Shown: positions 3,303 through 31,586 of the stretch, one piece after another
Layout: the number at the start of each line of letters is the position of its first letter
Numbering within the stretch: the stretch's first letter is position 1
Origin: Patescibacteria group bacterium
GTDB lineage: Bacteria; Patescibacteriota; Minisyncoccia; UBA6257; HR35
Direction of reading: 5' to 3'
DNA length: 32,000 nt
NCBI GenBank assembly: GCA_023480925.1
Contig: JAMCWY010000019.1
Location: 12,268 to 44,267 of the forward strand
Position numbers and translations under genes: made by a program
Notes under the pieces: model-generated
What the model saw: the letters and a program-made list of their open reading frames with translations, nothing else
What the model was told of the DNA's origin: nothing
Database searches by the model: none

Positions 3303-4010
3303 ATGGAGATAATTCCGATCAAGACAAGAATTTTCAAAGAAAGCGACGATTTGTTCGGTTTTCTCCGCGCCAATCTTCCGTTATTGAAATCGGGCGATAT
3401 CGTTGTCGTGACTTCAAAAATCGTGGCCCTGGCCCAAGGCCGAACCGTCCTATTTTCGCCTAAAGAAAAATATAAGTGGATAAAAAAAGAAAGCGACCAA
3501 ATTATTAAAACACCCTGGGCTTATCTGACTCTCAGAGAAAAACGTTGGTGCGTTAGCGCCGGTATCGATGAATCTAACGGCCGGGGCCGATTAATTTTTT
3601 TACCCAATGCCCCATTTAGCGTGGCCAAAAATCTTCAAAAGAAATTAAAAAAATTTTATGGCCTAAAAAAAATCGGCGTTCTGATCACGGACACTCGGAG
3701 CACGCCCTTGCGGGCGGGGGTGATCGGTTCAACTCTGGCCTACTTTGGTTTCTCGCCCATGAAAGACTACGTTGGTAAAAAAGATTTATTTGGCAGAAAG
3801 TTTAAATTTGTCAAAAGTAATATTGTTGATGCCTTAGCCGCGGCGGCGGGCGTAACGATGGGCGAAGGAGCGGAACGAAAACCAATTGCCGTTATCCGAA
3901 ATGCCAATGTTTATTTTACTCAAAAAAAACAATCTTTGGCAAAAGTTTTGATTAGACCCGAAAAAGATCTCTACCGATTTATTTACCGCCGAATTCGATC
4001 AACATCTTAA
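3303..4010 (+). CDS. CofE/FbiB-like gamma-glutamyl ligase family protein (F420-0:L-glutamate ligase fold)
   Basis: Motifs LKSGDIVVVTSKIVALAQGR, SAGIDESNG and VLITDTRSTPLRAGVIG are typical of the F420_ligase (CofE) family. Confidence 0.7.
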   Translation: MEIIPIKTRIFKESDDLFGFLRANLPLLKSGDIVVVTSKIVALAQGRTVLFSPKEKYKWIKKESDQIIKTPWAYLTLREKRWCVSAGIDESNGRGRLIFLPNAPFSVAKNLQKKLKKFYGLKKIGVLITDTRSTPLRAGVIGSTLAYFGFSPMKDYVGKKDLFGRKFKFVKSNIVDALAAAAGVTMGEGAERKPIAVIRNANVYFTQKKQSLAKVLIRPEKDLYRFIYRRIRSTS

Positions 4011-4065: not shown

Positions 4066-5061
4066 ATGAAACCGTGTTTCGTCAGCCCGTTGATCCAAAC
4101 AGTTGGCCGCGAGTTAGGAATTGAGGTCCGGTTGGAACCGAAGTATGGCTATGCCGGACAGTTAATTTTGCCGAACGGCCAAAAACGTTATTTCCGCAAC
4201 AATAGTTTCGATATCAATCTCCTGGGCGCTTCGGAAATTGCGAAAGACAAAATGTACGCGGCCTCCTTCCTCGCCAAGATGAACTACCCCGTCCCTGAAG
4301 GCGAAGAGTTTTTTTCCGACGCGTGGTGCGAAACTATCGCAAGTAAACGAGAGGCGCGAGCGGCCTATCGCTACGCCCAGTCAATTGGATTTCCCGTTAT
4401 AATTAAACCAAACAACAAAAGTCAAGGCGAAGGTGTTTTTAAAGTTGCGGGCAAAATTGATTTTTTCCGCTCGGTTGAAACAATCACTGCTTCCGACCGC
4501 GTCTTTTTAGTCCAACGGATAGTTGAAGGCGACGATTTTCGTTTCGTTGTTTTGGATCAAGAAGTTCTCGCCGCTTACCAAAGGATTCCACTTTCGGTCA
4601 CTGGCGATGGCCAATCTTCAATCCTGACACTATTGAAACAAAAACAAAAATCTTTTGATCGGTTAAAACGTTTTATTCGAATCTCGTTTGCCGACAATCG
4701 AATTACAAATCAGTTGAAACAATTAAAACTAACGCTCGATTCTATTTTGGGGATGGGTCAAATAATTCAGGTCCTGCCAATAGCCAATCTTTCTCTGGGC
4801 GGCGAGGCGATCGATCTGAGTGAAAAAATTCATCCCGATTGGAAACGTTTGGCTATTGAGATTACTCGGGCGATGGGACTACGTTTCTGCGGTTTAGACT
4901 TTATTATTCAAGGCAAAATTTGGGCTCAACCTTTTTCGTACGTGATTTTAGAATTAAATCCTTCACCCGGCCTTGAACACTTCGCCTCTTTGGGCAAAAA
5001 ACAGCGCGAGCGAGTTAAGATTATTTATCGAAAATTATTAGAAACGTTCTTGGAGAATTAA
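4066..5061 (+). CDS. ATP-grasp ligase (RimK / glutathione-synthetase / cyanophycin-synthetase-like)
   Basis: FPVIIKPNNKSQGEGVFKV and ILELNPSPGLEH resemble ATP-grasp nucleotide-binding and catalytic segments. It lies 55 nt downstream of the CofE-like gene. Confidence 0.65.
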   Translation: MKPCFVSPLIQTVGRELGIEVRLEPKYGYAGQLILPNGQKRYFRNNSFDINLLGASEIAKDKMYAASFLAKMNYPVPEGEEFFSDAWCETIASKREARAAYRYAQSIGFPVIIKPNNKSQGEGVFKVAGKIDFFRSVETITASDRVFLVQRIVEGDDFRFVVLDQEVLAAYQRIPLSVTGDGQSSILTLLKQKQKSFDRLKRFIRISFADNRITNQLKQLKLTLDSILGMGQIIQVLPIANLSLGGEAIDLSEKIHPDWKRLAIEITRAMGLRFCGLDFIIQGKIWAQPFSYVILELNPSPGLEHFASLGKKQRERVKIIYRKLLETFLEN

Positions 5062-9723: not shown

Positions 9724-11289
9724 TTAGTTTTGAATGTTAACCTTGATTTTGCTCGCGTCCAAAGGAAACGATTTCTGCCAAAATGGCCAAATTTCAATAT
9801 CGGCTTTTTCAACCTGGTCCAAGGATTTTAGATAATCGCGGATGTCGGTTAAAGACTTCCCCCTTAACTCCTGAACGATTTTTTGACTATCAAGAATTTC
9901 CTTGGTCGTAACCGTTCCTGTCGCCTCGATCGCCTCATTCTTAAAGTCCGGATCAAGTTGCTGAAGTTTGACCTTATCAATACTGATATTGGTAATCTCG
10001 ACATTATTTTTATTGGCTAGATTTTTTTTGGCGAAAATATCTTTGAGAAGTGAAATAAGCAATTCCTTTTTAACGCCAATCGCTTTCAGCTCGCCCGTGC
10101 CGCTTACCATAATTTTGGCCGCGGTCTGGCCAACCTGGTTGGAAACGTCGGTAACTTGAACGTTAATTTGGCCAATTTCTTCCGGAAAAACATAGTCCGG
10201 ATACTTCAAGGCAAGATCCTTGACCAAAAGATTGTTTAACTCGTTCTCCAACTTGACCCGACCATTATTAATATCGTCGATTAAAACCGTGTGGGAAACG
10301 TTGCCACCACCACCACCGCTAATCGTCCCTTTCGATTGAGCCGTAATTAACTTCTGCCAACTCGTTCCGGCTAAGCCCGGGATAGTGAAATTCGTCGTGG
10401 TCGAAAGATTATAGTCGCCACTTGAACCGTCGGCGGTGACTTGAACATCAACACTGCCTTGACCAGAAACATAAACCTGACTCAAAGAACGATAAATCTT
10501 ACCGGCGGGTGATTGAAAACGGGTGCCGGGAACCAAAGTCAAACTGTCGGCCGAAGAATCGGTTAAAACGATTACGCCCTGAGCGCGATTGTTCACGCCA
10601 AGACTTGGTCCGGTTGTCGTTTGAAAAACGCTATCGTTTTTAGTGATGTCAACGAAAGTCCCGGGCAAGGTGTGCGTGTCGATATTTTCCGAAGTGGCGT
10701 TACGGTCAAGAATAATAATCTCGTCAAACTTCTGGGTATCTTCCTTGGGCGTGATATCAACCTTGGCGCTGGTGCTGAAACCGCCCACGACAAATAAACC
10801 CAAACCGGTCAGGGCGATCGCGGCGGCGGTGACAAGAAAGATCTTTTTCAGTTTTTTTGTTTTTTTCGTTCGGCCGCGATCAAGAAAAATATCTTCGCCT
10901 TTCGACCGATGACGCTCGGCCTTGTGTTCGGCCGGATGATGAACCGGATTAAAATAATGAAATGGCTTCGGTTTAATCTTGGCCGGCGGCTTGATGTCTG
11001 TCACCAACTTCGCTCCTTCCGCCATCGCCTCGTACTCTTCCATAAATAAATCAAATCCGGCTTCTTTGACCAATTTGATAATCTCTTCGTCTTCCGTGCT
11101 TAAATAAATTTTTTTCTTCAAACGTTCGGTTTCTTTTTTAAGCAAGTCAAGATTGATTGGATGGAGGAAAACTTTTGTTTTGTCCGGGACAACCAAAATT
11201 AACTCTTTACTCTCGGAGTCACGAATCAACTCAATCACATCGCCCAACTCCTCTGTCCCTTTTAAATAAAAATAATCTTTTTCCATCAA
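9724..11289 (-). CDS. hypothetical single-pass membrane protein (521 aa)
   Basis: Long ORF with a basic stretch, then a TM segment (IFLVTAAAIALTGLGLFVVGGF), then a large Thr/Ser/Gly-rich region that is probably extracytoplasmic. No family recognised. Confidence 0.6.
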   Translation of the reverse strand: MMEKDYFYLKGTEELGDVIELIRDSESKELILVVPDKTKVFLHPINLDLLKKETERLKKKIYLSTEDEEIIKLVKEAGFDLFMEEYEAMAEGAKLVTDIKPPAKIKPKPFHYFNPVHHPAEHKAERHRSKGEDIFLDRGRTKKTKKLKKIFLVTAAAIALTGLGLFVVGGFSTSAKVDITPKEDTQKFDEIIILDRNATSENIDTHTLPGTFVDITKNDSVFQTTTGPSLGVNNRAQGVIVLTDSSADSLTLVPGTRFQSPAGKIYRSLSQVYVSGQGSVDVQVTADGSSGDYNLSTTTNFTIPGLAGTSWQKLITAQSKGTISGGGGGNVSHTVLIDDINNGRVKLENELNNLLVKDLALKYPDYVFPEEIGQINVQVTDVSNQVGQTAAKIMVSGTGELKAIGVKKELLISLLKDIFAKKNLANKNNVEITNISIDKVKLQQLDPDFKNEAIEATGTVTTKEILDSQKIVQELRGKSLTDIRDYLKSLDQVEKADIEIWPFWQKSFPLDASKIKVNIQN

Positions 11290-14119: not shown

Positions 14120-15139
14120 CTAAAAACCGAGGCTGATTTTTTCGCGCTCGACCATTTCCTTTTCAATTCGATAAAGACCGAGCTTGCCTAAAATATAAAA
14201 ACAAAACCAAGCGATAAAACTCAGAACCCACCCATAAAACCACAAAATTGATTGGACAATAACGACGATTAGCAGCGCCAAAATAATCTTGACGGCGTAA
14301 AATTTTAGCTGGTCGCGGCTCGAGTTTAACCAAAACAAACTGAGATATTTGTAAACCGCTTGGCTTAAAGTATCGTTGGGGTTGATGTTGGTTTTGAGTT
14401 TGTTATTTAAATTACTTAGAGTTGGACTAACGGCCGCCGCCTCAATCGTTCCGGTTGAAACCTGAATCGGCTGGCTGGTTGAGCCGACCGGCAGACCAAG
14501 ATTGCTTAAATTAACCACACTACTCTCCGACATAATGTTACTTGAAATAATCTCGCTAACCTTGGTTTCGGGCGTAATTTGAACCTTAAGACTTTGGCTA
14601 ACTTGACTAAAAATCGGCGTGGTTAAGTTGGCCAAACGATTAAAATTCTGGGCCGAAATAAAATCTTGACCCGAACTAGTAAAAACCACAATAATCAAAA
14701 TTAAAATTAAAAACCAGTTTACGACCGTCCACTTCGCCCGAGTCAAACCAAGCCAGTTAATTTTTAACTTCGCCTGTTCAACGCTCATCATCCGCCAAAA
14801 GGCGTTCAGGCTGACGATAATAAAAATCAAAAAAGACCAGCTGGCCAAATTAACGTTCCCGGTCAAACGATAAAACCAAACTGACAAAAACACGGCCACG
14901 ATCACTTGGGCCAAAAAAGAAATAATAAAATCGCCGCCAAGCTCAAGGAGAATATCAAAAAGCAACCAGATGAGCGCACTTAAAATAAAAACATTAAATA
15001 AATTAAAGTTGAGCTGAAGAAAAACGATCAAGCCGAGATAGGCCGTACTTGAACCAAAAATGATCGTGGCTAAAAATATCAAGATTGTTTTTAAACCAAC
15101 CCTCTCAATCTTTGCCACTTCTTCGCTTTTAATCACCAT
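14120..15139 (-). CDS. hypothetical polytopic membrane protein inserted between dnaK and dnaJ
   Basis: A 339-aa ORF with several hydrophobic helices at both ends. It has its own TATAAT (15148-15153, minus) 8 nt before the ATG. Confidence 0.6.
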   Translation of the reverse strand: MVIKSEEVAKIERVGLKTILIFLATIIFGSSTAYLGLIVFLQLNFNLFNVFILSALIWLLFDILLELGGDFIISFLAQVIVAVFLSVWFYRLTGNVNLASWSFLIFIIVSLNAFWRMMSVEQAKLKINWLGLTRAKWTVVNWFLILILIIVVFTSSGQDFISAQNFNRLANLTTPIFSQVSQSLKVQITPETKVSEIISSNIMSESSVVNLSNLGLPVGSTSQPIQVSTGTIEAAAVSPTLSNLNNKLKTNINPNDTLSQAVYKYLSLFWLNSSRDQLKFYAVKIILALLIVVIVQSILWFYGWVLSFIAWFCFYILGKLGLYRIEKEMVEREKISLGF

Positions 15140-24679: not shown

Positions 24680-26089
24680 TTAATCGTTTAACTCGCCGCT
24701 GTTTTCAACCCGATTGACTTCCTCGACTCGGGCTTTAAATTCGCCTTTATAAATTTTCGCTTTAATCTGATCGCCCGAGACGACTTGATCAATGTCTTTA
24801 ACGACCGCGCCAATCTGATTAATTATAATACTATAACCCAGTTTTAAATTACGACTCGGATTAAAACCGGCCAAGCGCGATCGGCTCAACTCCAACTCTT
24901 TGGTCAAGCGGTTGATTAATTTTTCAAATAAAATCGGCAGACGCGAACCGAACTCTTCGACCGCCTTTTCTTTTTTCGCCCGCATCGATTCAAACTGCCT
25001 GAGATTAAGAATAAATTGGTTGAAAACGTTTTTTGAGCGAAAACTAATTTGGTTTAACTGATTTAAAAGTCGAACGTTTGCCTGATCAAACTCGGCCTGG
25101 CTTGTCTGCAAACCAAACTCAAAAAGATGAGTAATGTTGGTTTCAAATCGGGGTAAGACTTCAATTAAATTTCGCCAAGAATCGTTTATGGCGATCGCGG
25201 CCGCGGTTGGCGTTGACGGAGCCAAGTCGGCAACCAAGTTGGCAATTGGCAGATCGCGCTCGTGGCCGATCCCAGCGATGGTCGGTATCTTTGAGCCAAA
25301 AATCGATCGGCAAACCAGTTCATGATTAAACGGCTGAAGATCTTCAAGACTGCCGCCGCCGCGAATTATAACCAAAACATTCAAACCCGGGCTGGTTTGA
25401 TTAAACCAATCGATCGCTTTAATAATATTGTCAACCGCTTGCCGGCCCTCAACCCGAACATCACGGAAAAAAATTTTATAACCGCGCCGGTCCAAGTTGC
25501 GGCGAAAATCATCGATAACCGCGCCGGTCTTCGACGTGATTAAACCAATCGTTTGGATAAACTCGGGCAGTGGCCGTTTCCGTTCGAACAAACCCTCAAG
25601 TTCCAGTTTTCGCTTAAGTAGATCATAAGCTTTTTTTAAGGCGCCCTCGCCGACCAATTCCAAACCTTCGACCAAAAAACTCAGCCGGCCCTTGGCTTTA
25701 TAAATCTCGGCCCGACCGCTTACCTTAATCGCCATGCCTTCAGCTAAGGTCAAACCAAGACTGCGATAAAGACCGGGGCGGATATAGCAGTTTAAAACCG
25801 CCGTTTCTTTTTGGTCCTTTAAAGCGAAATAAACGCCGGTTTGATGATGATTAAGTTCGGTAATCTCGCCCAATATAGAAACAATTTGAATCGCCAAAAC
25901 TTCGTTAAGTTGGTCGATAAAATCAGCGACGCCAAACAGACGCTCGGTTGAAATCGAAGATTCGGCCGAATCGAAACCGGCCAATCTTTTTTTCTTCTCG
26001 TCGTCGCTCAAAACCAACTTAAGGCGGCTTGATTGAAATAAATCACTCTCGGCGCCGCTATTTTTTCTTCGATTGATTCGCTTAGCCAT
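24680..26089 (-). CDS. xseA: exodeoxyribonuclease VII large subunit
   Basis: N-terminal OB fold (ILGEITELNHHQTGVYFALKD), then the catalytic region (IGLITSKTGAVIDDF...IIRGGGSLEDL...GIGHERD). Confidence 0.88.
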   Translation of the reverse strand: MAKRINRRKNSGAESDLFQSSRLKLVLSDDEKKKRLAGFDSAESSISTERLFGVADFIDQLNEVLAIQIVSILGEITELNHHQTGVYFALKDQKETAVLNCYIRPGLYRSLGLTLAEGMAIKVSGRAEIYKAKGRLSFLVEGLELVGEGALKKAYDLLKRKLELEGLFERKRPLPEFIQTIGLITSKTGAVIDDFRRNLDRRGYKIFFRDVRVEGRQAVDNIIKAIDWFNQTSPGLNVLVIIRGGGSLEDLQPFNHELVCRSIFGSKIPTIAGIGHERDLPIANLVADLAPSTPTAAAIAINDSWRNLIEVLPRFETNITHLFEFGLQTSQAEFDQANVRLLNQLNQISFRSKNVFNQFILNLRQFESMRAKKEKAVEEFGSRLPILFEKLINRLTKELELSRSRLAGFNPSRNLKLGYSIIINQIGAVVKDIDQVVSGDQIKAKIYKGEFKARVEEVNRVENSGELND

Positions 26090-26774
26090 TGGCTTCTTCC
26101 GGTTCAGATTGGCCTAATCGACTAAATAACTCGATCATCTCTTCTTTCGAATAAATATCGAAGTCGCGCAGCTCACCCAAATAATTTTGTTCATAAGTTT
26201 TTAAGTACTGGTTGACGTAATCCACGATCGCGTCGGTTCGGCTAAAATTTTTCTTAAAAAGATCGAAACCATATTGAAGCTCAAGCAGATGCGCCTGGCG
26301 AATGGCGAAAAGCCAAGCTGAACGTTCCGCCAATAAAACTTCTTCGTATTCTTTTTTAATCGCTTTTAACCTTGACTCCGGATAAATATTAGCCTTGTCC
26401 AATGCTCTCGATTTCTGATTAGCTTTTATCGCCGACCAGATGAATTCCGTCTCAGTCGAATCAACAACATGACCAATTTCGTGAAGGAGGTTGAACAAAT
26501 CCTTAATCTCGTCAAATCGCCCGACCAAAACTTCCGGTTTTTGACCATGATGATTAGGCATAACCGCTGACCAATCATTCTTCCGACTTAACCTAAATTT
26601 CGTTCCGGCCGGTACAAACCAGTTAAAATCGAGAACGATCAGATTATCCTTTTTGAAACCGATAAACAAATCGTCATTTTCTTTTCTTTTAATCGTCAAC
26701 TTTAAACCCTGACCCAACTCGATTGATTTTTCTTTTTTCAACCAACCCAATCCCTCTTTTAATTGATTGAACAT
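26082..26774 (-). CDS. hypothetical HExxH (HEIGH) putative metallopeptidase-like protein
   Basis: LLHEIGHVVD motif. The start is moved to the ATG at 26774 because TTGGCG-N17-TATAAT (the -10 at 26782-26787, minus) sits 7 nt upstream of it. The 3' end overlaps the xseA start by 8 nt. Confidence 0.55.
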   Translation of the reverse strand: MFNQLKEGLGWLKKEKSIELGQGLKLTIKRKENDDLFIGFKKDNLIVLDFNWFVPAGTKFRLSRKNDWSAVMPNHHGQKPEVLVGRFDEIKDLFNLLHEIGHVVDSTETEFIWSAIKANQKSRALDKANIYPESRLKAIKKEYEEVLLAERSAWLFAIRQAHLLELQYGFDLFKKNFSRTDAIVDYVNQYLKTYEQNYLGELRDFDIYSKEEMIELFSRLGQSEPEEANG

Positions 26775-26883
26775 TACTAATATTATAAAACTAGAAATAA
26801 AAACTCGCCAACTCGACAATCAGAACAGTTGATTTAAAACAACCATGAAAATAACTCGACCAAAAAGCAACGAGAGAACGAAT

Positions 26884-27552: not shown

Positions 27553-27626
27553 TGCGGGGTCGTCTAATGGTAGGACCGTGGACTCTGGATCCATGTATCT
27601 AGGTTCGAATCCTAGCCCCGCAGCCA
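27553..27626 (+). tRNA. tRNA-Gln (anticodon CUG), CCA encoded
   Basis: I folded it by hand. The acceptor is TGCGGGG/CCCCGCA (U1-A72) with discriminator G73 and CCA. The D stem is GTCT/GGAC. The anticodon stem is GTGGA/TCCAT with loop CT-CTG-GA. The T arm is CTAGG-TTCGAAT-CCTAG. Total length is 74 nt. Confidence 0.93.
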
Positions 27627-27637
27627 AATTTGACGCA

Positions 27638-27839
27638 ACAAACTTTTGACATTATTTTGCCGAATTTAATCCACAAATCTAAGAAACGAGACCTTACCTG
27701 ATAGTTGCCCGCCGCCTGCGGCGGCGGGTAGGAAAACCCGTCGGCTCTCGCGGGCAAAAATTTTTCCCCTCAAACTCCCCCAATTTTTGGCCGCGAGACA
27801 ACCACAAAAGATTTACAAAATCAGTGAGATAGTGTATAA
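27638..27839. repeat. left copy of the 202-bp inverted repeat (IR-L)
   Basis: It matches the reverse complement of 30423-30624 at 194/202 positions with no gaps (hand alignment). Confidence 0.95.
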
Positions 27840-27840
27840 A
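27812..27840 (+). promoter_or_regulatory. inward-facing promoter TTTACA-N17-TATAAA at the inner end of IR-L
   Basis: -35 at 27812-27817, -10 at 27835-27840, and an exact 17-nt spacer. Confidence 0.6.
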
Positions 27841-27845
27841 GTTAA

Positions 27846-28238
27846 TCAGTACATTCAAATTCCAAACGAAAAGAGAAGAGGTGTAACTGTGTTTATTTAT
27901 ATCGGTGGCGTACCCGGGAACAGATGCTTACGATAACGCTCATTGTCGCGACCCCCATACCATCTGCGTCGCCGTCTCAAAGACGCGGACGATCGGCATG
28001 ACCGTAAGCGTAATATTGATTTTCTGATTCACGAACAGAAAATAGAAGTCAATATTGCCGTTTCTCAAGCCGCAGAACTCGGCATTCCTCTTTGCTGCGT
28101 GAGTAATAAGGGTGGCGAGAATCCGATAGCTTCGGAAGTACTTTTCTCTTTCTGTGTCCACCAAGCGCTATGCCGCAAAATACTGCGGCGCATCTTTCCC
28201 TGACCCACCGTACATTTCCCTACGGTGGGTTTTTATTT
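27846..28238 (+). ncRNA. candidate structured non-coding transcript (~390 nt), family unknown
   Basis: It is bounded by the IR-L promoter and a strong intrinsic terminator, and it is locally GC-enriched. It contains several helices, including 27926-27932/28003-28009, a 15-bp bulged hairpin at 28012-28056, and 28172-28189. The only ORFs are TTG-initiated, lack an RBS and mutually overlap. Confidence 0.45.
28203..28238 (+). terminator. rho-independent terminator (plus-strand orientation)
   Basis: ACCCACCGTA (28203-28212), an 8-nt loop, then TACGGTGGGT (28221-28230), followed by TTTTTATTT. On the minus strand no T-run follows the stem. Confidence 0.8.
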
Positions 28239-28781
28239 GAATACGCAATTTTCTTTAGTAATACCGTGGTTTTTTTTATAATCTTCCCATAGACCAAGGT
28301 ATGCCCTGGTAATCCTTGGCCGATCTAAAAGATTAAATTCGTTGAGATACCGATCTATTGTTTTCGGTTCACCCTCAAACTCAACAAAAAAACCGAAAGG
28401 TAATTTGTCAAATGAGATAGCAATATCATTTTTGAAAACATTTTTTCGTTTTTTCTCAAAAATAATTTCTTTGCTAAAACCCAAAGACCTCAATATCTCC
28501 CTCAAATTTTCAATATTTTCACCCTCTTTCATTTTTATCTCCAGTTCTTCTCGCTCAAAAAACTGGGCGTTTTCTCTTGTTTTTCTTTTCACAGTTAAAA
28601 TAATCTCTTTTTTCTCTCCTTCTACATATTTAATTCTTGGGAAAATGCCATCTTTGATGTTTGAAAAATCCTCTTTGAAATAGCCAAAGGTTCTTTCCAG
28701 GTGGAAATTATCAAAACCATCGGTAAAACGGCTAAATTCTTCAGGCGTTAATTCAATTTTTACTTCTATTTCTTTTTTCAT
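28233..28781 (-). CDS. CYTH-domain protein (triphosphate tunnel metalloenzyme; CyaB/ThTPase-like)
   Basis: N-terminal ExExK motif (EIEVKIE), plus further acidic strand motifs (REELEIK, FVEFEGE). It is 182 aa. It overlaps the upstream gene by 29 nt. Confidence 0.7.
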   Translation of the reverse strand: MKKEIEVKIELTPEEFSRFTDGFDNFHLERTFGYFKEDFSNIKDGIFPRIKYVEGEKKEIILTVKRKTRENAQFFEREELEIKMKEGENIENLREILRSLGFSKEIIFEKKRKNVFKNDIAISFDKLPFGFFVEFEGEPKTIDRYLNEFNLLDRPRITRAYLGLWEDYKKNHGITKENCVFK

Positions 28782-29664
28782 ATTTTTCTTCTTTTTCGTG
28801 GTCGTAATACGTTGGATATTTTTCAGACATTGGGAATCTGTATTTTGTTTGGTCTTTCACTCCCGCTTCTTTATATCCCCTCCGTCGGTCCCAACAAGTG
28901 GGACAATCGCCGCATTCGATATCAAATGATTTAACACAGGTTCTTGCTTTGTGCAGGGGTATTCCGTTTTCGAAAGACCATTTTATAAAAACATCTTTAT
29001 CAAAATAATTTCCAAACTCCGTTTCTATGGGGAGTGATATAAACTGCCAAGACCAATCGTTCAGTATTTGACAAAATAATATGTTCATTAACCTAACCCA
29101 AGTTTGAGAACAGTGATAGGAAAAATCCGAACTCATATTAGAGGCGAATACTGTTTTTGTTTCAACCCCCAGTGCTTTTAAAGAATAGCCGTACTCCATT
29201 CCGGTTAAAAATACTATTGGTCCTCTTGCCGGATAAGATATGTTATGACTTAACGGAATATCATCCATTATTCTTTTTGTTTTTCTCAATAAATCCTTGT
29301 ATTCCATCCCCGGCGTCATAATAGTTATCTCTTTATAATTGTGATAAAGTTTTGGGAATTTTCTCTTGTAAAATCGGTCAAAATAATCTACTGACTTCTT
29401 CTCATATTTGTAGTTTGACTGGCCCCTGTTTATGAAAAATGGATAAACATTCAAACTAAATTCTTTTAACAGTATTTCTATATTGGCAACGGAATCTTGG
29501 CCGCCAGACAAACAAGCAACAACGCTATCACCCCCTTTTGGCATTTTAACAACATACCCTCTTTTACTTTTCAGGATACCATCATATATCTTGAGTAGAG
29601 TAATATCCTCATTCTCTTTATTTTCGAATTTTACTTCTCCTTGTTTATTCAGTATTTTGGTCAT
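28753..29664 (-). CDS. QueC-like PP-loop ATPase (7-cyano-7-deazaguanine synthase family)
   Basis: PP-loop ACLSGGQDS and a C-terminal Cys cluster C-x7-C-x2-C-x2-C (CVKSFDIECGDCPTC), followed by RRRGYKEAGVKDQTKY, as in QueC. It has a roughly 45-aa N-terminal extension. Confidence 0.72.
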   Translation of the reverse strand: MTKILNKQGEVKFENKENEDITLLKIYDGILKSKRGYVVKMPKGGDSVVACLSGGQDSVANIEILLKEFSLNVYPFFINRGQSNYKYEKKSVDYFDRFYKRKFPKLYHNYKEITIMTPGMEYKDLLRKTKRIMDDIPLSHNISYPARGPIVFLTGMEYGYSLKALGVETKTVFASNMSSDFSYHCSQTWVRLMNILFCQILNDWSWQFISLPIETEFGNYFDKDVFIKWSFENGIPLHKARTCVKSFDIECGDCPTCWDRRRGYKEAGVKDQTKYRFPMSEKYPTYYDHEKEEKYEKRNRSKN

Positions 29665-30388
29665 AGTGCTTGTATGATTTGATTATTTCTTTTGCTTCCC
29701 CAACGGTTTCTTGATAAATATGTGCATCAGTTATAAAACCATCCAATGGCCCAACCCAAACATTGGTGTTCAATTTTTCTTTTAATCGTTCTACTACTTC
29801 CTTGGACAAAAGAGAGATTGCGACAAAATTTCCTCCAGCTTTTTGATACGCATCTATCGATCTTGCGTTAAATAATGTATTCATGTGATACCCCCTTTCC
29901 CCATTCATTTTAATAAGTCGGAATTGGACAGTTGTAATGCAGGGCAAATAATCATCTTTGGGCCTATCCAAAACTCTTTGATAATCCTCGTGTCTTATAA
30001 AACTCATAATTGCTTTTTTGGATTCTGGAATTTCGGCTAATCTCGCAACCACAAAATCTAACATTCCCCAATCTTTTATTCTTGCATAATAACTTTTACT
30101 ACCGGGACTAAACGAAGGCACGACATCAAAATCGTGCATTATATCCTTGGTGAATGTGAGTTCTATTATCTGGTCTATGTTTTTTTTATCCCCATACTTT
30201 TCAATAAGAACATCGGGGAGAGATTGCGTTGCTGATTTCATACGGATATTCTGCAGACTAACTCTTTTTCTCCCATCATCTTCAGTGAGCACTCCATTTT
30301 TAATAATCGCTTCAACTAAGCTCAACCAGACGCTTCCTATTGTTTCACCGAAAATGTTATAACCGAATGGTTCTAGTTTGACATACAT
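29645..30388 (-). CDS. thymidylate synthase (ThyA) fold enzyme, archaeal-like short form
   Basis: It carries LPCITTVQF (catalytic Cys with Q at +5), ARSID followed by N at D+8 (GGNFVAISLL), and TDAHIY (D-x-H-x-Y). These match the ThyA active-site layout. Confidence 0.72.
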   Translation of the reverse strand: MYVKLEPFGYNIFGETIGSVWLSLVEAIIKNGVLTEDDGRKRVSLQNIRMKSATQSLPDVLIEKYGDKKNIDQIIELTFTKDIMHDFDVVPSFSPGSKSYYARIKDWGMLDFVVARLAEIPESKKAIMSFIRHEDYQRVLDRPKDDYLPCITTVQFRLIKMNGERGYHMNTLFNARSIDAYQKAGGNFVAISLLSKEVVERLKEKLNTNVWVGPLDGFITDAHIYQETVGEAKEIIKSYKHYDQNTE

Positions 30389-30421
30389 AAGTTTAAATTA
30401 TTCACAAAAACGATGGTTTAA

Positions 30422-30450
30422 ATTATACACTATCTCACTGATTTTGTAAA
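30422..30450 (-). promoter_or_regulatory. inward-facing promoter TTTACA-N17-TATAAT at the inner end of IR-R, driving the ThyA-like/QueC-like/CYTH operon
   Basis: On the minus strand the -35 is at 30445-30450 and the -10 at 30422-30427, with a 17-nt spacer. The ATG at 30388 implies a leader of about 27 nt with no Shine-Dalgarno sequence. Confidence 0.65.
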
Positions 30451-30624
30451 TCTTTTGTGTTTATCTCGCGGCCAAAAATTGGGGGAGTTTGAGGGGGAAA
30501 ATTTTTGCCCGCGAGAGCCGACGGGTTTTCCTACCCGCCGCCGCAGGCGGCGGGCAACTATCAGGTAAGGTTTCGTTTCTTAGATTTGTGGATTAGGTTT
30601 GGTAAAATAATGTCAAAAGTTTGT
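30423..30624. repeat. right copy of the 202-bp inverted repeat (IR-R)
   Basis: Reverse complement of IR-L, with 8 substitutions and no indels. Confidence 0.95.
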
Positions 30625-30916: not shown

Positions 30917-30953
30917 ATTATTGGCATTTTATTATTTAAGGAGGAAAGAAAAA

Positions 30954-31586
30954 ATGGGTTTATTCATCGTGTTTGAAGGAGTCGACGGTTCAGGCAAGAC
31001 GCAGCAGAGCCGACTACTGAGCGACCATCTCAAAAGAAAGGGGTATAAGGTTCTTTTAACCAAAGAACCGGGCGGCGACGATTCAATCTCTTATATGATC
31101 AGATTGATCTTGCTTAACCCCGACCATAAAAACAAAATAGCGACCAAAACCGAGCTGATGCTTTTCGAAGCTGACCGAGCTCAGCATATTGATCGTACCA
31201 TCATGCCTGCTCTTAGAAACGACGAGATCGTCATATCCGACCGGTTTGACGCCGCCACTTACGCTTATCAAGTTTACGCGAGAAATGTTTGTTCCGCTGA
31301 AGAATTCTTTCACTTGAATGAATTCGTAACAAACGCTTTGTCGCCGGATTTTACTTTCTGGCTCGATTTGGACCCAACTATCGGCTTAAAACGCAACGCT
31401 AACGCCGGGAAAAAAGATCGATTCGAACTCGAAGGGATTGAATTCCACCGAAACGTTCGAGAAGGATATATAGAATATTTTCAAAATATCCCGGAGGAAA
31501 AGTACGCCAAGATCACCACCAATCGGCCGATTAAAAAAATCCACGAAGAAATTCTTCAGATTTTGGATAAAAAATTCAAAATCTAA
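30954..31586 (+). CDS. tmk: thymidylate kinase
   Basis: MGLFIVFEGVDGSGKTQQ P-loop, LTKEPGG, and a DRF/D-R motif region. The start is set at the ATG behind a strong SD rather than the track's upstream TTG. Confidence 0.88.
   Translation: MGLFIVFEGVDGSGKTQQSRLLSDHLKRKGYKVLLTKEPGGDDSISYMIRLILLNPDHKNKIATKTELMLFEADRAQHIDRTIMPALRNDEIVISDRFDAATYAYQVYARNVCSAEEFFHLNEFVTNALSPDFTFWLDLDPTIGLKRNANAGKKDRFELEGIEFHRNVREGYIEYFQNIPEEKYAKITTNRPIKKIHEEILQILDKKFKI

Follow-up and report, generated by a model that had tools for sequence, protein, structure and literature searches.

A mobile gene cluster for a ThyA-like, a QueC-like and a CYTH protein in Patescibacteria, with a possible role in making a non-canonical pyrimidine nucleotide

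We analysed a 32,000 bp stretch of DNA from a Patescibacteria group bacterium (contig JAMCWY010000019.1, positions 12,268 to 44,267; hereafter the window) and found in it a compact operon of three genes, which encode a ThyA-like enzyme, a QueC-like PP-loop ATPase and a CYTH protein. The gene content of the window is that of a chromosome of the Candidate Phyla Radiation (CPR)/Patescibacteria, including DnaK, DnaJ, GrpE, FtsH, TrmD, AlaRS, enolase, PPDK and XseA, and homologues of the three open reading frames (ORFs) were annotated as Nealsonbacteria or Paceibacterota. The operon is composed of the following features.

29645-30388, minus strand: ThyA-like gene, ORF of 247 aa
28753-29664, minus strand: QueC-like PP-loop gene, ORF of 303 aa
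28233-28781, minus strand: CYTH gene, ORF of 182 aa
30422-30450, minus strand: operon promoter TTTACA-17-TATAAT, 11/12 positions matching, 34 nt 5' of the ATG

All three ORFs are intact and form a core of about 2.2 kb, in which the ThyA-like and QueC-like genes overlap by 20 nt (29645-29664) and the QueC-like and CYTH genes by 29 nt (28753-28781). An initial annotation, made from the sequence of the window, had described three overlapping minus-strand ORFs, a near-consensus promoter and the ThyA, QueC and CYTH folds. The coordinates and both overlaps were as it gave them, the promoter was recovered and its -35 region is kept in relatives, and the fold assignments hold at family level with weak scores.

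About 40 related loci (given below as L numbers) were assembled from contig look-ups, from a scan of one genome per GTDB species and from IMG/VR, and they were scored with profiles made from the ThyA-like, QueC-like and CYTH proteins of the window. The species-level scan used two peptide patterns on 185,579 species representatives, so the count of carriers is a lower bound. Homologue matches numbered 131 for the QueC-like protein and 499 for the ThyA-like protein, nearly all from CPR-type metagenomes. The ThyA-like and QueC-like genes were adjacent in every locus that had both flanks, including all five look-ups anchored on the ThyA-like gene, and the 20 nt overlap between them recurs in relatives; in the more distant L042, a ThyA-like gene of 36% identity overlaps its QueC-like gene. 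The ThyA-like gene is missing from L027, the remnant of a decayed locus. Upstream of the ThyA-like gene, the -35 block AAAAGATTTACAAAA was kept in L010-L012, L014, L016 and L030. All three genes are under strong purifying selection when compared with five relatives (dN/dS 0.04-0.12, synonymous divergence near saturation), with values of 0.04-0.07 for the ThyA-like, 0.05-0.08 for the QueC-like and 0.05-0.12 for the CYTH gene.

The association of the trio is far beyond chance, and the initial annotation's own test for a coincidence, whether the three genes occur together elsewhere, came out against coincidence, since they do so across the loci. Full-text searches of the literature with combinations of QueC-like, thymidylate synthase, CYTH, Ham1 and PP-loop returned no description of the cluster, and a ThyA-linked group is likewise missing from a survey of the QueC family published in 2026 (PMC13329287); both agree with the earlier statement that no described pathway holds this trio.

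The ThyA-like protein passed the cut-off of PF00303 (Thymidylat_synt; E=3e-7, 30.2 bits, cut-off 24.3) and failed both NCBIfam equivalog models, TIGR03283 (37.8 vs 174.55) and NF002495 (27.3 vs 327). Its AlphaFold2 (AF2) model had a predicted local distance difference test score (pLDDT) of 87.9, with residues 81-100 at about 65. In Foldseek the model reached E=3e-11 to ThyA of E. faecalis and gave 396 PDB matches at E<=1e-3; ThyA, MilA (TMq 0.69) and a phage flavin-dependent dCMP 5-hydroxylase matched about equally well. Through hhalign to E. coli ThyA, C150 in a PC motif was aligned with Cys146, N187 with N177, R176/S177/D179 with R166/S167/D169, and H223/Y225 with H207/Y209. C150, R176, S177, D179, N187, H223 and Y225 are invariant across the ThyA-like family, of which the mean column identity is 68%, and the E. 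coli residues R126/R127 are replaced by K124/K125.

The folate contacts L172, G173 and F176 of E. coli ThyA are occupied by invariant Q182, K183 and G186. The W80-W83 region corresponds to D86-F-D88 and the E58 position is not conserved, both being by-eye readings in the low-pLDDT loop that deserve moderate weight. From this alignment the cofactor site appears changed, and the carbon donor may be other than folate. It was reported that an Asn at the N177 position goes with a uracil substrate, and that a bulky residue at the L143 position goes with a methyl-type and not a hydroxymethyl product (PMC13326640). Because Asn187 is the equivalent of N177, a uracil substrate would be expected for the ThyA-like enzyme; invariant Tyr147 sits at the L143 position, and on account of this bulky residue a methyl-type product is suggested rather than a hydroxymethyl one.

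The QueC-like protein matched PF06508 (QueC) with E=4e-9 and 36.7 bits (cut-off 22) and the PADLOC QueC model at 5.6e-14, and it stayed below the equivalog models TIGR00364 (17.4 vs 150.3) and QatC NF041925 (17.2 vs 280). The top structural matches of its AF2 model (pLDDT 93.5) were Cap9 (9nto_B) and QueC (2pg3). With the family profile against PDB, Cap9 was found at E=9e-10, the sequence alignment covering the two ends of the protein only; judged by sequence, the substrate-binding middle is diverged from both QueC and Cap9. The motifs YxQxHxxE, VPxRN and YPDC are characteristic of QueC, in which Y35, R99 and Y131 are essential (PMC13329287). In the QueC-like family, the PP-loop S53-G-G-Q-D57-S is invariant, as is the zinc motif C243(x7)C251xxC254xxC257, for which the canonical spacing is C(x)8. 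YPAR147(N/G), here YPARG, is the equivalent of VPxRN, and the stacking Arg and Tyr are kept. By eye, R80-G-Q82 takes the place of Y-G-Q, with Arg80 for the essential Tyr35, and S-Y183-H184-C takes the place of YPDC, with His for the Asp that reads deazaguanine in QueC and Cap9, in Cap9 through a hydrogen bond. His184 would fit a planar base other than deazaguanine as the substrate. The model also shows one more helix at the N-terminus, and its residues 115-141 form an insertion.

No queD, queE, folE or tgt gene was found within 5-10 kb in the roughly 40 loci; the radical SAM protein in L003 is an AhbD/NirJ-type match and not QueE. A sister clade of the QueC-like proteins (P0285, P0291, P0305, P0276 and P0312; 405-465 aa, E of about 1e-50 to the profile) has a PqqD/RRE peptide-recognition domain fused at the C-terminus, or a peptidase S24 domain in one case, which suggests an undescribed QueC-family group that may modify peptides. 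Some loci contain a second, shorter QueC paralogue (247-273 aa; PF06508, 3e-18), for example at 3409-4152 of L036. In loci with this paralogue up to three extra Ham1 copies and a nucleoside diphosphate kinase (NDK) gene were detected (L037, 4554-8515), suggesting an expanded or branched version of the pathway.

The CYTH protein came just below the cut-off of PF01928 (E=1.7e-4, 21.9 bits, cut-off 23.2), and its homologues pass that cut-off with 38.8 and 39.9 bits. Among 14 family members the ExExK motif (E4xE6xK8) is conserved, and the tunnel residues R49, K65, R77, E79, E109, K110, R112, D125, E134 and E136 are at least 90% conserved. The CyaB equivalog TIGR00318 scored 23.7 against a cut-off of 57.95 (E 3.6e-5). 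As the third component of the cluster, CYTH was present in 27 loci, and where it is missing a Ham1/RdgB-family pyrophosphatase was found, free-standing in L024, L028, L035 and L036 and fused to the QueC-like protein in L005 and L025. CYTH and Ham1 are unrelated folds with NTP hydrolysis as their common activity. Because a plain pyrophosphatase can replace CYTH, we read the CYTH activity as hydrolysis and not cyclisation, and the protein is predicted to be a (d)NTP pyrophosphatase or triphosphatase.

According to the initial annotation, the three proteins could have turned out to be an ordinary ThyA, an ordinary QueC and a housekeeping CYTH, encoded next to queD/queE/folE. This is not what we found: the ThyA-like protein lies far below the equivalog cut-offs and its folate-pocket residues are not conserved, the QueC-like protein has sub-threshold scores, His for Asp and no such neighbours, and CYTH, also with sub-threshold scores, follows the pair in 27 loci.

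Most loci add a P-loop nucleoside monophosphate (NMP) kinase, of which there are three kinds: K3, Tmk-like, and deoxynucleoside kinase (dNK)/Tmk-like. Two kinase genes lie beside the operon in the window.

27880-28203, plus strand: K3 pseudogene, the cluster's own adenylate-kinase-like NMP kinase, located through tblastn with the intact K3 of L013, L022 and L030
30921-31586, plus strand: thymidylate kinase gene tmk (PF02223, E=8e-44), divergent from the operon

The K3 family matches AAA_17 and the archaeal-type adenylate kinase PRK04040, and K3 directly follows CYTH or Ham1 in 14 related loci; NDK comes after K3 in L026 and L037. In the window, the K3 remnant lies between the tRNA-Gln gene and the CYTH stop, in convergent orientation to the operon like the K3 of L013, L022 and L030. 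It is composed of an N-terminal fragment (27880-27918) whose P-loop ends after GGVPG, a stop codon, and then residues 121-202 (27943-28203), which are 78% identical to the K3 of L013. About 100 codons are missing from an intact length of about 200 aa. K3 is also truncated in L012, the closest long relative.

Tmk-like kinases are encoded inside the operon in L001, L003, L009, L019 and L048, and dNK/Tmk-like kinases in the Amesbacteria loci and the Woesearchaeota locus L034. In canonical Tmk, the Phe of the thymine motif stacks on thymine and the Arg forms a hydrogen bond with it. The tmk product of the window has this motif as LMLFEADRAQH (canonical LFxADRxxH), whereas the in-operon kinases have LLTASDFxxQ, with F to T and R to F changes. 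With these different base-binding motifs and only 26-31% identity, the tmk of the window was rejected as an orthologue of the in-operon Tmk-like kinases. We conclude from the motifs that the in-operon kinases are specialised, and that the tmk of the window is an ordinary housekeeping gene, a neighbour and not a proven member of the cluster. The initial annotation had placed tmk next to the operon, which is correct (divergent, 30921-31586), and had cast it as the dNMP kinase of the pathway, which does not agree with its canonical housekeeping motif and with the finding that the cluster's own K3 is a pseudogene. With K3 dead, phosphorylation of the product could fall to the window tmk. Because the Tmk-like kinases lack the thymine-reading Arg and Phe, a non-thymine product is indicated, and loss of the Arg that reads O4 hints at a product that may no longer present the thymine O4.

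The loci differ in the genes around the core. A second CYTH gene and an HD/YfbR-like phosphohydrolase gene flank L026 and L039/L047, and NUDIX genes recur nearby. In the sister-clade locus L041, the order is ThyA-like, K3, a protein of the dCTP-deaminase (DCD) fold (PF22769, 1.9e-13), QueC-like and Ham1. The possibility that the DCD-fold protein of L041 replaces the ThyA-like enzyme was rejected, since the upstream partial ORF ends in the ThyA-like C-terminus (..SLHIYTED..). A small DUF2103 predicted metal-binding protein is encoded between CYTH and K3 in the long relatives closest to the window, L012 (11555-11854) and L030 (8853-9215), and is absent from the window. ThiF/MoeB-like genes were seen near L016, L027 and L035 and cysteine-synthase-like genes near L019 and L028, the family names being given from motifs by eye. 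Such sulfur-chemistry neighbours might be taken as a weak hint at thiolation in the PP-loop step; we dropped a sulfur-transfer reading based on them, the genes being too sporadic and their families named by eye. HisKA_7TM sensor histidine kinase genes occur within a few genes of the cluster in L001, L003, L012, L016 and L038, five loci that differ in arrangement; this may reflect regulation or chance.

The cluster was detected in 28 of the 185,579 species representatives. The carriers are Nealson-, Brenner-, Ames-, Uhr-, Levyi-, Berkel-, Shapiro- and Staskawiczbacteria and Paceibacterota, together with two DPANN archaea that carry the cluster at 49-58% identity. The QueC-like protein of the window is 72% identical to the copy of Amesbacteria (L018), which belong to another CPR class. 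Transposase, recombinase and conjugation genes were found near several loci. In six of the 28 species loci (L016, L027, L030, L033, L038 and L039), cluster genes are truncated, frameshifted, interrupted by a stop or partly duplicated, either through frequent decay or through errors in the assembly of metagenome-assembled genomes. One IMG/VR contig, which contains terminase, exonuclease, endolysin, YopX and NinB genes, carries the ThyA-like, QueC-like and CYTH genes among its replication genes. A protein search of 50,697 sequenced phage genomes returned QueC of Dp-1 alone, at 23% identity, and no match for the ThyA-like protein.

The borders of the cluster in the window were marked by the following features.

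30414-30624, minus strand: right arm of an inverted repeat (211 nt), in the promoter/upstream region of the ThyA-like gene
27638-27848, plus strand: left arm of the inverted repeat, 94-96% identical to the right arm, leading into the K3 pseudogene
27553-27626, plus strand: tRNA-Gln(CTG) gene, ending 12 nt before the left repeat arm, left border of the cluster
28202-28231, strand not assigned: GC-rich hairpin between the convergent CYTH gene and K3 remnant, of which the plus strand copy alone scored terminator-like

The repeat arms bracket the K3 remnant and the CYTH, QueC-like and ThyA-like genes, and each arm ends about 25-30 nt before the start of the adjacent gene. Each arm contains two strong hairpins, CCCGCCGCC/GGCGGCGGG and a 16-bp palindrome CTCGCGGGCAAAAATT..AATTTTTGGCCGCGAG (fold z-score -4.1), followed by a near-consensus promoter. 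Parts of the repeat are conserved upstream of the ThyA-like gene in L012, L016 and L030, with no Rfam match. Two origins come into question for the inverted repeat: duplication of a promoter/operator region, or a mobile cassette of which the arms form the ends. Rfam, at gathering and at permissive thresholds, gave neither a riboswitch nor any other known RNA in the leader or the flanks, and a riboswitch in the ThyA-like leader was rejected on this ground and on the position of the hairpins upstream of the conserved promoter. Because of this position, we read the hairpins as DNA-level or insulator elements. The hairpin at 28202-28231 is likely a terminator common to CYTH and the K3 remnant.

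The GC content is 0.35-0.37 inside the cluster (28001-30000) and about 0.42 in the flanks, and the cluster looks like an island inserted beside the tRNA gene. From the cross-class identity, the low GC content, the tRNA border, the mobility genes nearby and the gene decay, we conclude that the cluster is an accessory, horizontally moving module and not part of core metabolism.

What we observed are the folds and catalytic motifs of the proteins, the order and co-occurrence of the genes, the purifying selection on them and their patchy distribution. Starting from these observations we consider it moderately probable that the trio forms the core of a mobile pathway of three to seven genes, which would act on free nucleotides and make a non-canonical pyrimidine (d)NTP. 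A pathway in which a (d)NTP is brought down, modified and rebuilt is indicated by the interchangeable NTP hydrolases, the three kinds of NMP kinase, NDK, the DCD-fold protein and the uracil-type ThyA fold. We infer every substrate, the order of the steps, the chemistry of the QueC-like enzyme and the fate of the product. In the proposed scheme, the first step would be hydrolysis of a pyrimidine (d)NTP to its monophosphate by CYTH (Ham1 elsewhere), with dUTP as the most likely substrate; one variant would have a DCD-fold dCTP deaminase feeding into this step. Cys150 of the ThyA-fold enzyme would then attack C6 of dUMP, and a group would be added at C5. The QueC-like enzyme, presumably coupled in translation to the ThyA-like enzyme and always encoded beside it, would adenylate an oxygen of the nucleotide (ring carbonyl or carboxyl) and swap in nitrogen, possibly sulfur. 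A dedicated NMP kinase (K3, Tmk-like or dNK-like) and then NDK would rebuild the triphosphate for use in nucleic acid, probably DNA. With the dedicated kinase of this window decayed, its role would fall to the neighbouring housekeeping Tmk or to another kinase.

The chemistry established for the PP-loop enzymes QueC, GuaA, NadE, ThiI, MnmA, TtuA, TilS and LarE is adenylation of a carboxyl or ring carbonyl followed by exchange of its oxygen for N or S. Candidate reactions of the QueC-like enzyme would be amination of the ThyA-like product at C4, which would yield a cytosine substituted at C5; thiolation at either C2 or C4; and amidation or nitrile formation on a C5 carboxyl, by analogy with LarB/LarE. 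Any single one of these is rated much less likely than the general pathway. In a more specific form, some CPR bacteria and DPANN archaea and at least one of their phages would make a new pyrimidine deoxynucleotide for DNA, by way of a ThyA-fold enzyme without the folate pocket acting at C5 of dUMP and a subsequent QueC-type exchange of O for N or S; this form we put forward tentatively, as possible and somewhat doubtful. For DNA, possible products would be a 5-methylcytosine-type base derived from dTMP, thio-thymidine, or 5-carboxamido- or 5-cyano-uracil. The initial annotation had offered, as one of two hypotheses, a modified-pyrimidine pathway with the logic of T4 and SPO1. The in-operon kinases, NDK, the Ham1 alternative, the DCD-fold protein and the phage contig agree with it; the part given there to the adjacent tmk fell away, this being a housekeeping gene.

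Several points weigh against such a pathway. The cluster is nearly absent from viral collections (one IMG/VR contig and 0 of the 50,697 sequenced phages), and it would be unusual for a cell to alter its own dNTP pool. An intact dedicated kinase is missing from many loci, among them this window and the phage contig. The PqqD-fused closest sister clade leaves a protein or peptide substrate possible for the QueC-like enzyme. In addition, the argument from the folate pocket is a sequence alignment in the least confident region of the model (pLDDT about 65, residues 81-100).

The product might instead be a free modified base, a nucleoside secondary metabolite or a cofactor precursor, following the logic of MilA/MilB or BcmA/BcmB, and not a DNA building block. 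MilA is among the best structural matches of the ThyA-like protein (TMq 0.69), methyltransferase and acetyltransferase genes lie near L001, L015 and L047, and in two Paceibacterota lineages (L001/L002/L021 and L009/L023) the divergent gene directly upstream resembles the dNMP N-glycosidases of the Rcl/DNPH1 family (5-hydroxymethyl-dUMP N-hydrolase). For the genes of L001 (3920-4657, minus strand) and L009 (5255-5872, minus strand), the twelve best PDB matches were all of the Rcl/DNPH1 family and the catalytic-Glu motif aligned. However, this similarity is weak (E=0.015-0.24) and restricted to two lineages, and DNPH1-type enzymes can be plain sanitisers; kinases that rebuild triphosphates and NDK are far commoner partners, and the phage carries the trio among replication genes, so that we hold such a product unlikely. 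We regard as quite unlikely that the cluster serves ordinary pyrimidine housekeeping or salvage in symbionts auxotrophic for nucleotides, with the ThyA-like enzyme as thymidylate synthase, CYTH or Ham1 as a dUTPase substitute and the QueC-like enzyme making a canonical nucleotide (e.g. dCMP from dUMP by amination) or serving an unusual one-carbon cofactor. The cluster is rare and patchy (28 species), with cross-class and cross-domain identities that point to transfer and with frequent pseudogenisation; the thymine pocket is altered in the dedicated kinases, the ThyA-like scores are far under the equivalog cut-offs (37.8 vs 174.6; 27.3 vs 327) and the folate-pocket residues are not conserved. 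All this has to be set against the dUMP-type Asn and the bulky residue at the L143 position, as in methyl-forming enzymes, the high conservation of the ThyA-like protein (68% mean column identity) and the canonical tmk that adjoins in this window. A DCD-fold protein, ThyA and a kinase would also make up the classic route from dCTP to dTMP, but to deaminate dCTP and then aminate again would be a futile cycle.

Anti-phage defence was the other hypothesis of the initial annotation, in the form of a system like Qat or CBASS (cyclic-oligonucleotide-based anti-phage signalling system). It might work through an antiviral nucleotide analogue (viperin-like), through dNTP depletion upon infection, or through a Cap9/QatC-like QueC with a nucleotide signal from CYTH. 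The QueC-like protein is structurally closest to Cap9 and matches the PADLOC QueC model (5.6e-14), the CYTH family includes class IV cyclases with a match to the cyaB model (3.6e-5), the cluster is patchily distributed, mobile and often decayed, and HEPN/NTase, AbiEii and transposase genes are near some loci. Yet the hypothesis was not supported by the survey, in which sensor, effector, CD-NTase, Cap10/TGT-like and QatA/B/D genes were absent from all of the roughly 40 loci. The QatC (17 vs 280 bits) and cyaB scores are far under the cut-offs, PADLOC gave no match for the ThyA-like or CYTH protein, and no partner protein has the Gly2 N-terminus used in deazaguanylation. Replacement of CYTH by Ham1 argues against a cyclase, and the trio is present in a phage; we take a defence function to be very unlikely. 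Modification of a protein or peptide by the QueC-like enzyme, the target being the ThyA-like protein or a small ORF and the nucleotide enzymes supplying the attached group, seems highly improbable to us, although the nearest solved relative, Cap9, is a protein N-terminus ligase, the next QueC-like clade is fused to PqqD/RRE or peptidase S24 domains, and the coupling with the ThyA-like gene could mean a physical complex. The QueC-like clade of the cluster itself has no RRE domain and no conserved small ORF alongside, the N-termini have no exposed Gly (ThyA-like MYVKL, CYTH MKKEI, K3 MKMFF), and the constant partners are all enzymes of the nucleotide pool.

Apart from the cluster, the window contains a gene for a CofE-like protein with the F420-0:gamma-glutamyl ligase domain (3303-4010, plus strand; PF01996, 1e-36), adjoined by a RimK-type ATP-grasp ligase gene (4066-5061, plus strand). 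This pair looks like cofactor glutamylation, which we did not expect among CPR bacteria. Two genes upstream of the ThyA-like gene, Amesbacteria loci encode a luciferase-like oxidoreductase (F420/flavin-type). Three minus-strand ORFs of the window had no Pfam match, at 9724-11289 (521 aa), 14120-15139 (339 aa) and 26082-26819 (245 aa), the last of which overlaps the start of xseA by 8 nt.

The ThyA-like/QueC-like pair, kept under selection, points to an undescribed base or nucleotide. Known pathways to modified DNA pyrimidines use a ThyA homologue and a dedicated kinase, and to our knowledge none has a QueC-type ATP-dependent amidotransferase. If the proposed pathway is true, it would be the first case of a QueC-family enzyme acting on a pyrimidine nucleotide, beyond 7-deazaguanines and protein deazaguanylation, and the first cellular, not phage, pathway that replaces a base before replication. 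Most carriers are ultra-small symbionts without de novo nucleotide synthesis, presumably living on nucleic acids of the host. We might speculate that a private nucleotide allows them to distinguish self DNA from consumed DNA, or to evade nucleases of host and phage.

Phage T4 encodes the dCTPase/dUTPase gp56, the dCMP hydroxymethylase gp42 and the dNMP kinase gp1, SPO1 a dUMP hydroxymethylase and XP12 a dCMP methylase. RB69 and DLP3 combine a 5-hydroxy-dCMP synthase with a dNMP kinase (PMC13326640). Like these T4-type pathways, the cluster brings together a pyrophosphatase for NTPs, a ThyA-fold enzyme for a pyrimidine dNMP and an NMP kinase of its own (plus NDK); the genes are clustered and mobile and occur in at least one phage here. 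NTP pyrophosphatase, ThyA homologue and dedicated kinase were found together across the cluster family; in the window the kinase is the pseudogene. In contrast to the T4-type pathways, and to every pathway described, the cluster couples its ThyA homologue to a QueC-family PP-loop ATPase as an obligatory member; its pyrophosphatase is CYTH or Ham1 and not of the MazG/Dut type, its hosts are mostly cellular CPR and DPANN, and the cofactor pocket of the ThyA-like enzyme is diverged.

With QueC (7-cyano-7-deazaguanine synthase) and its defence paralogues Cap9 (type IV CBASS) and QatC (QatABCD), the QueC-like enzyme has in common the fold, the PP-loop (SGGxDS), the zinc motif of four Cys at the C-terminus and, in the substrate site, the Tyr and Arg that stack. 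It differs from them by His for Asp, Arg for Tyr35, the N-terminal helix and the 115-141 insertion; its partner is always the ThyA-fold enzyme, and not queD/queE/folE, Cap10/CD-NTase or QatA/B/D. LarB/LarE, of the lactate racemase cofactor pathway, offer an analogy only: there, a mononucleotide with a six-membered ring is functionalised at C5 by a Cys-addition enzyme, after which a PP-loop enzyme of the wider QueC superfamily adenylates the new carboxyl and exchanges O for S. Within PF06508, LarE forms cluster 3 (PMC13329287). Unlike that pair, the ThyA-like enzyme has no homology to LarB and no sign of carboxylation, and LarE has no zinc motif, which the QueC-like enzyme keeps.

As in MilA/MilB and BcmA/BcmB, which belong to the biosynthesis of nucleoside antibiotics, a ThyA fold would act on a pyrimidine mononucleotide apart from the making of DNA precursors, and a possible Rcl/MilB-like N-glycosidase is encoded beside the cluster in two lineages. 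MilA and BcmA use CMP with Asp at the N177 position, whereas the ThyA-like enzyme has Asn, and their pathways contain no PP-loop enzyme, whereas the cluster carries kinases and NDK. With one step, that of the QueC-like enzyme, for which we found no precedent, the architecture of the cluster extends the nucleotide-level base-modification pathways.

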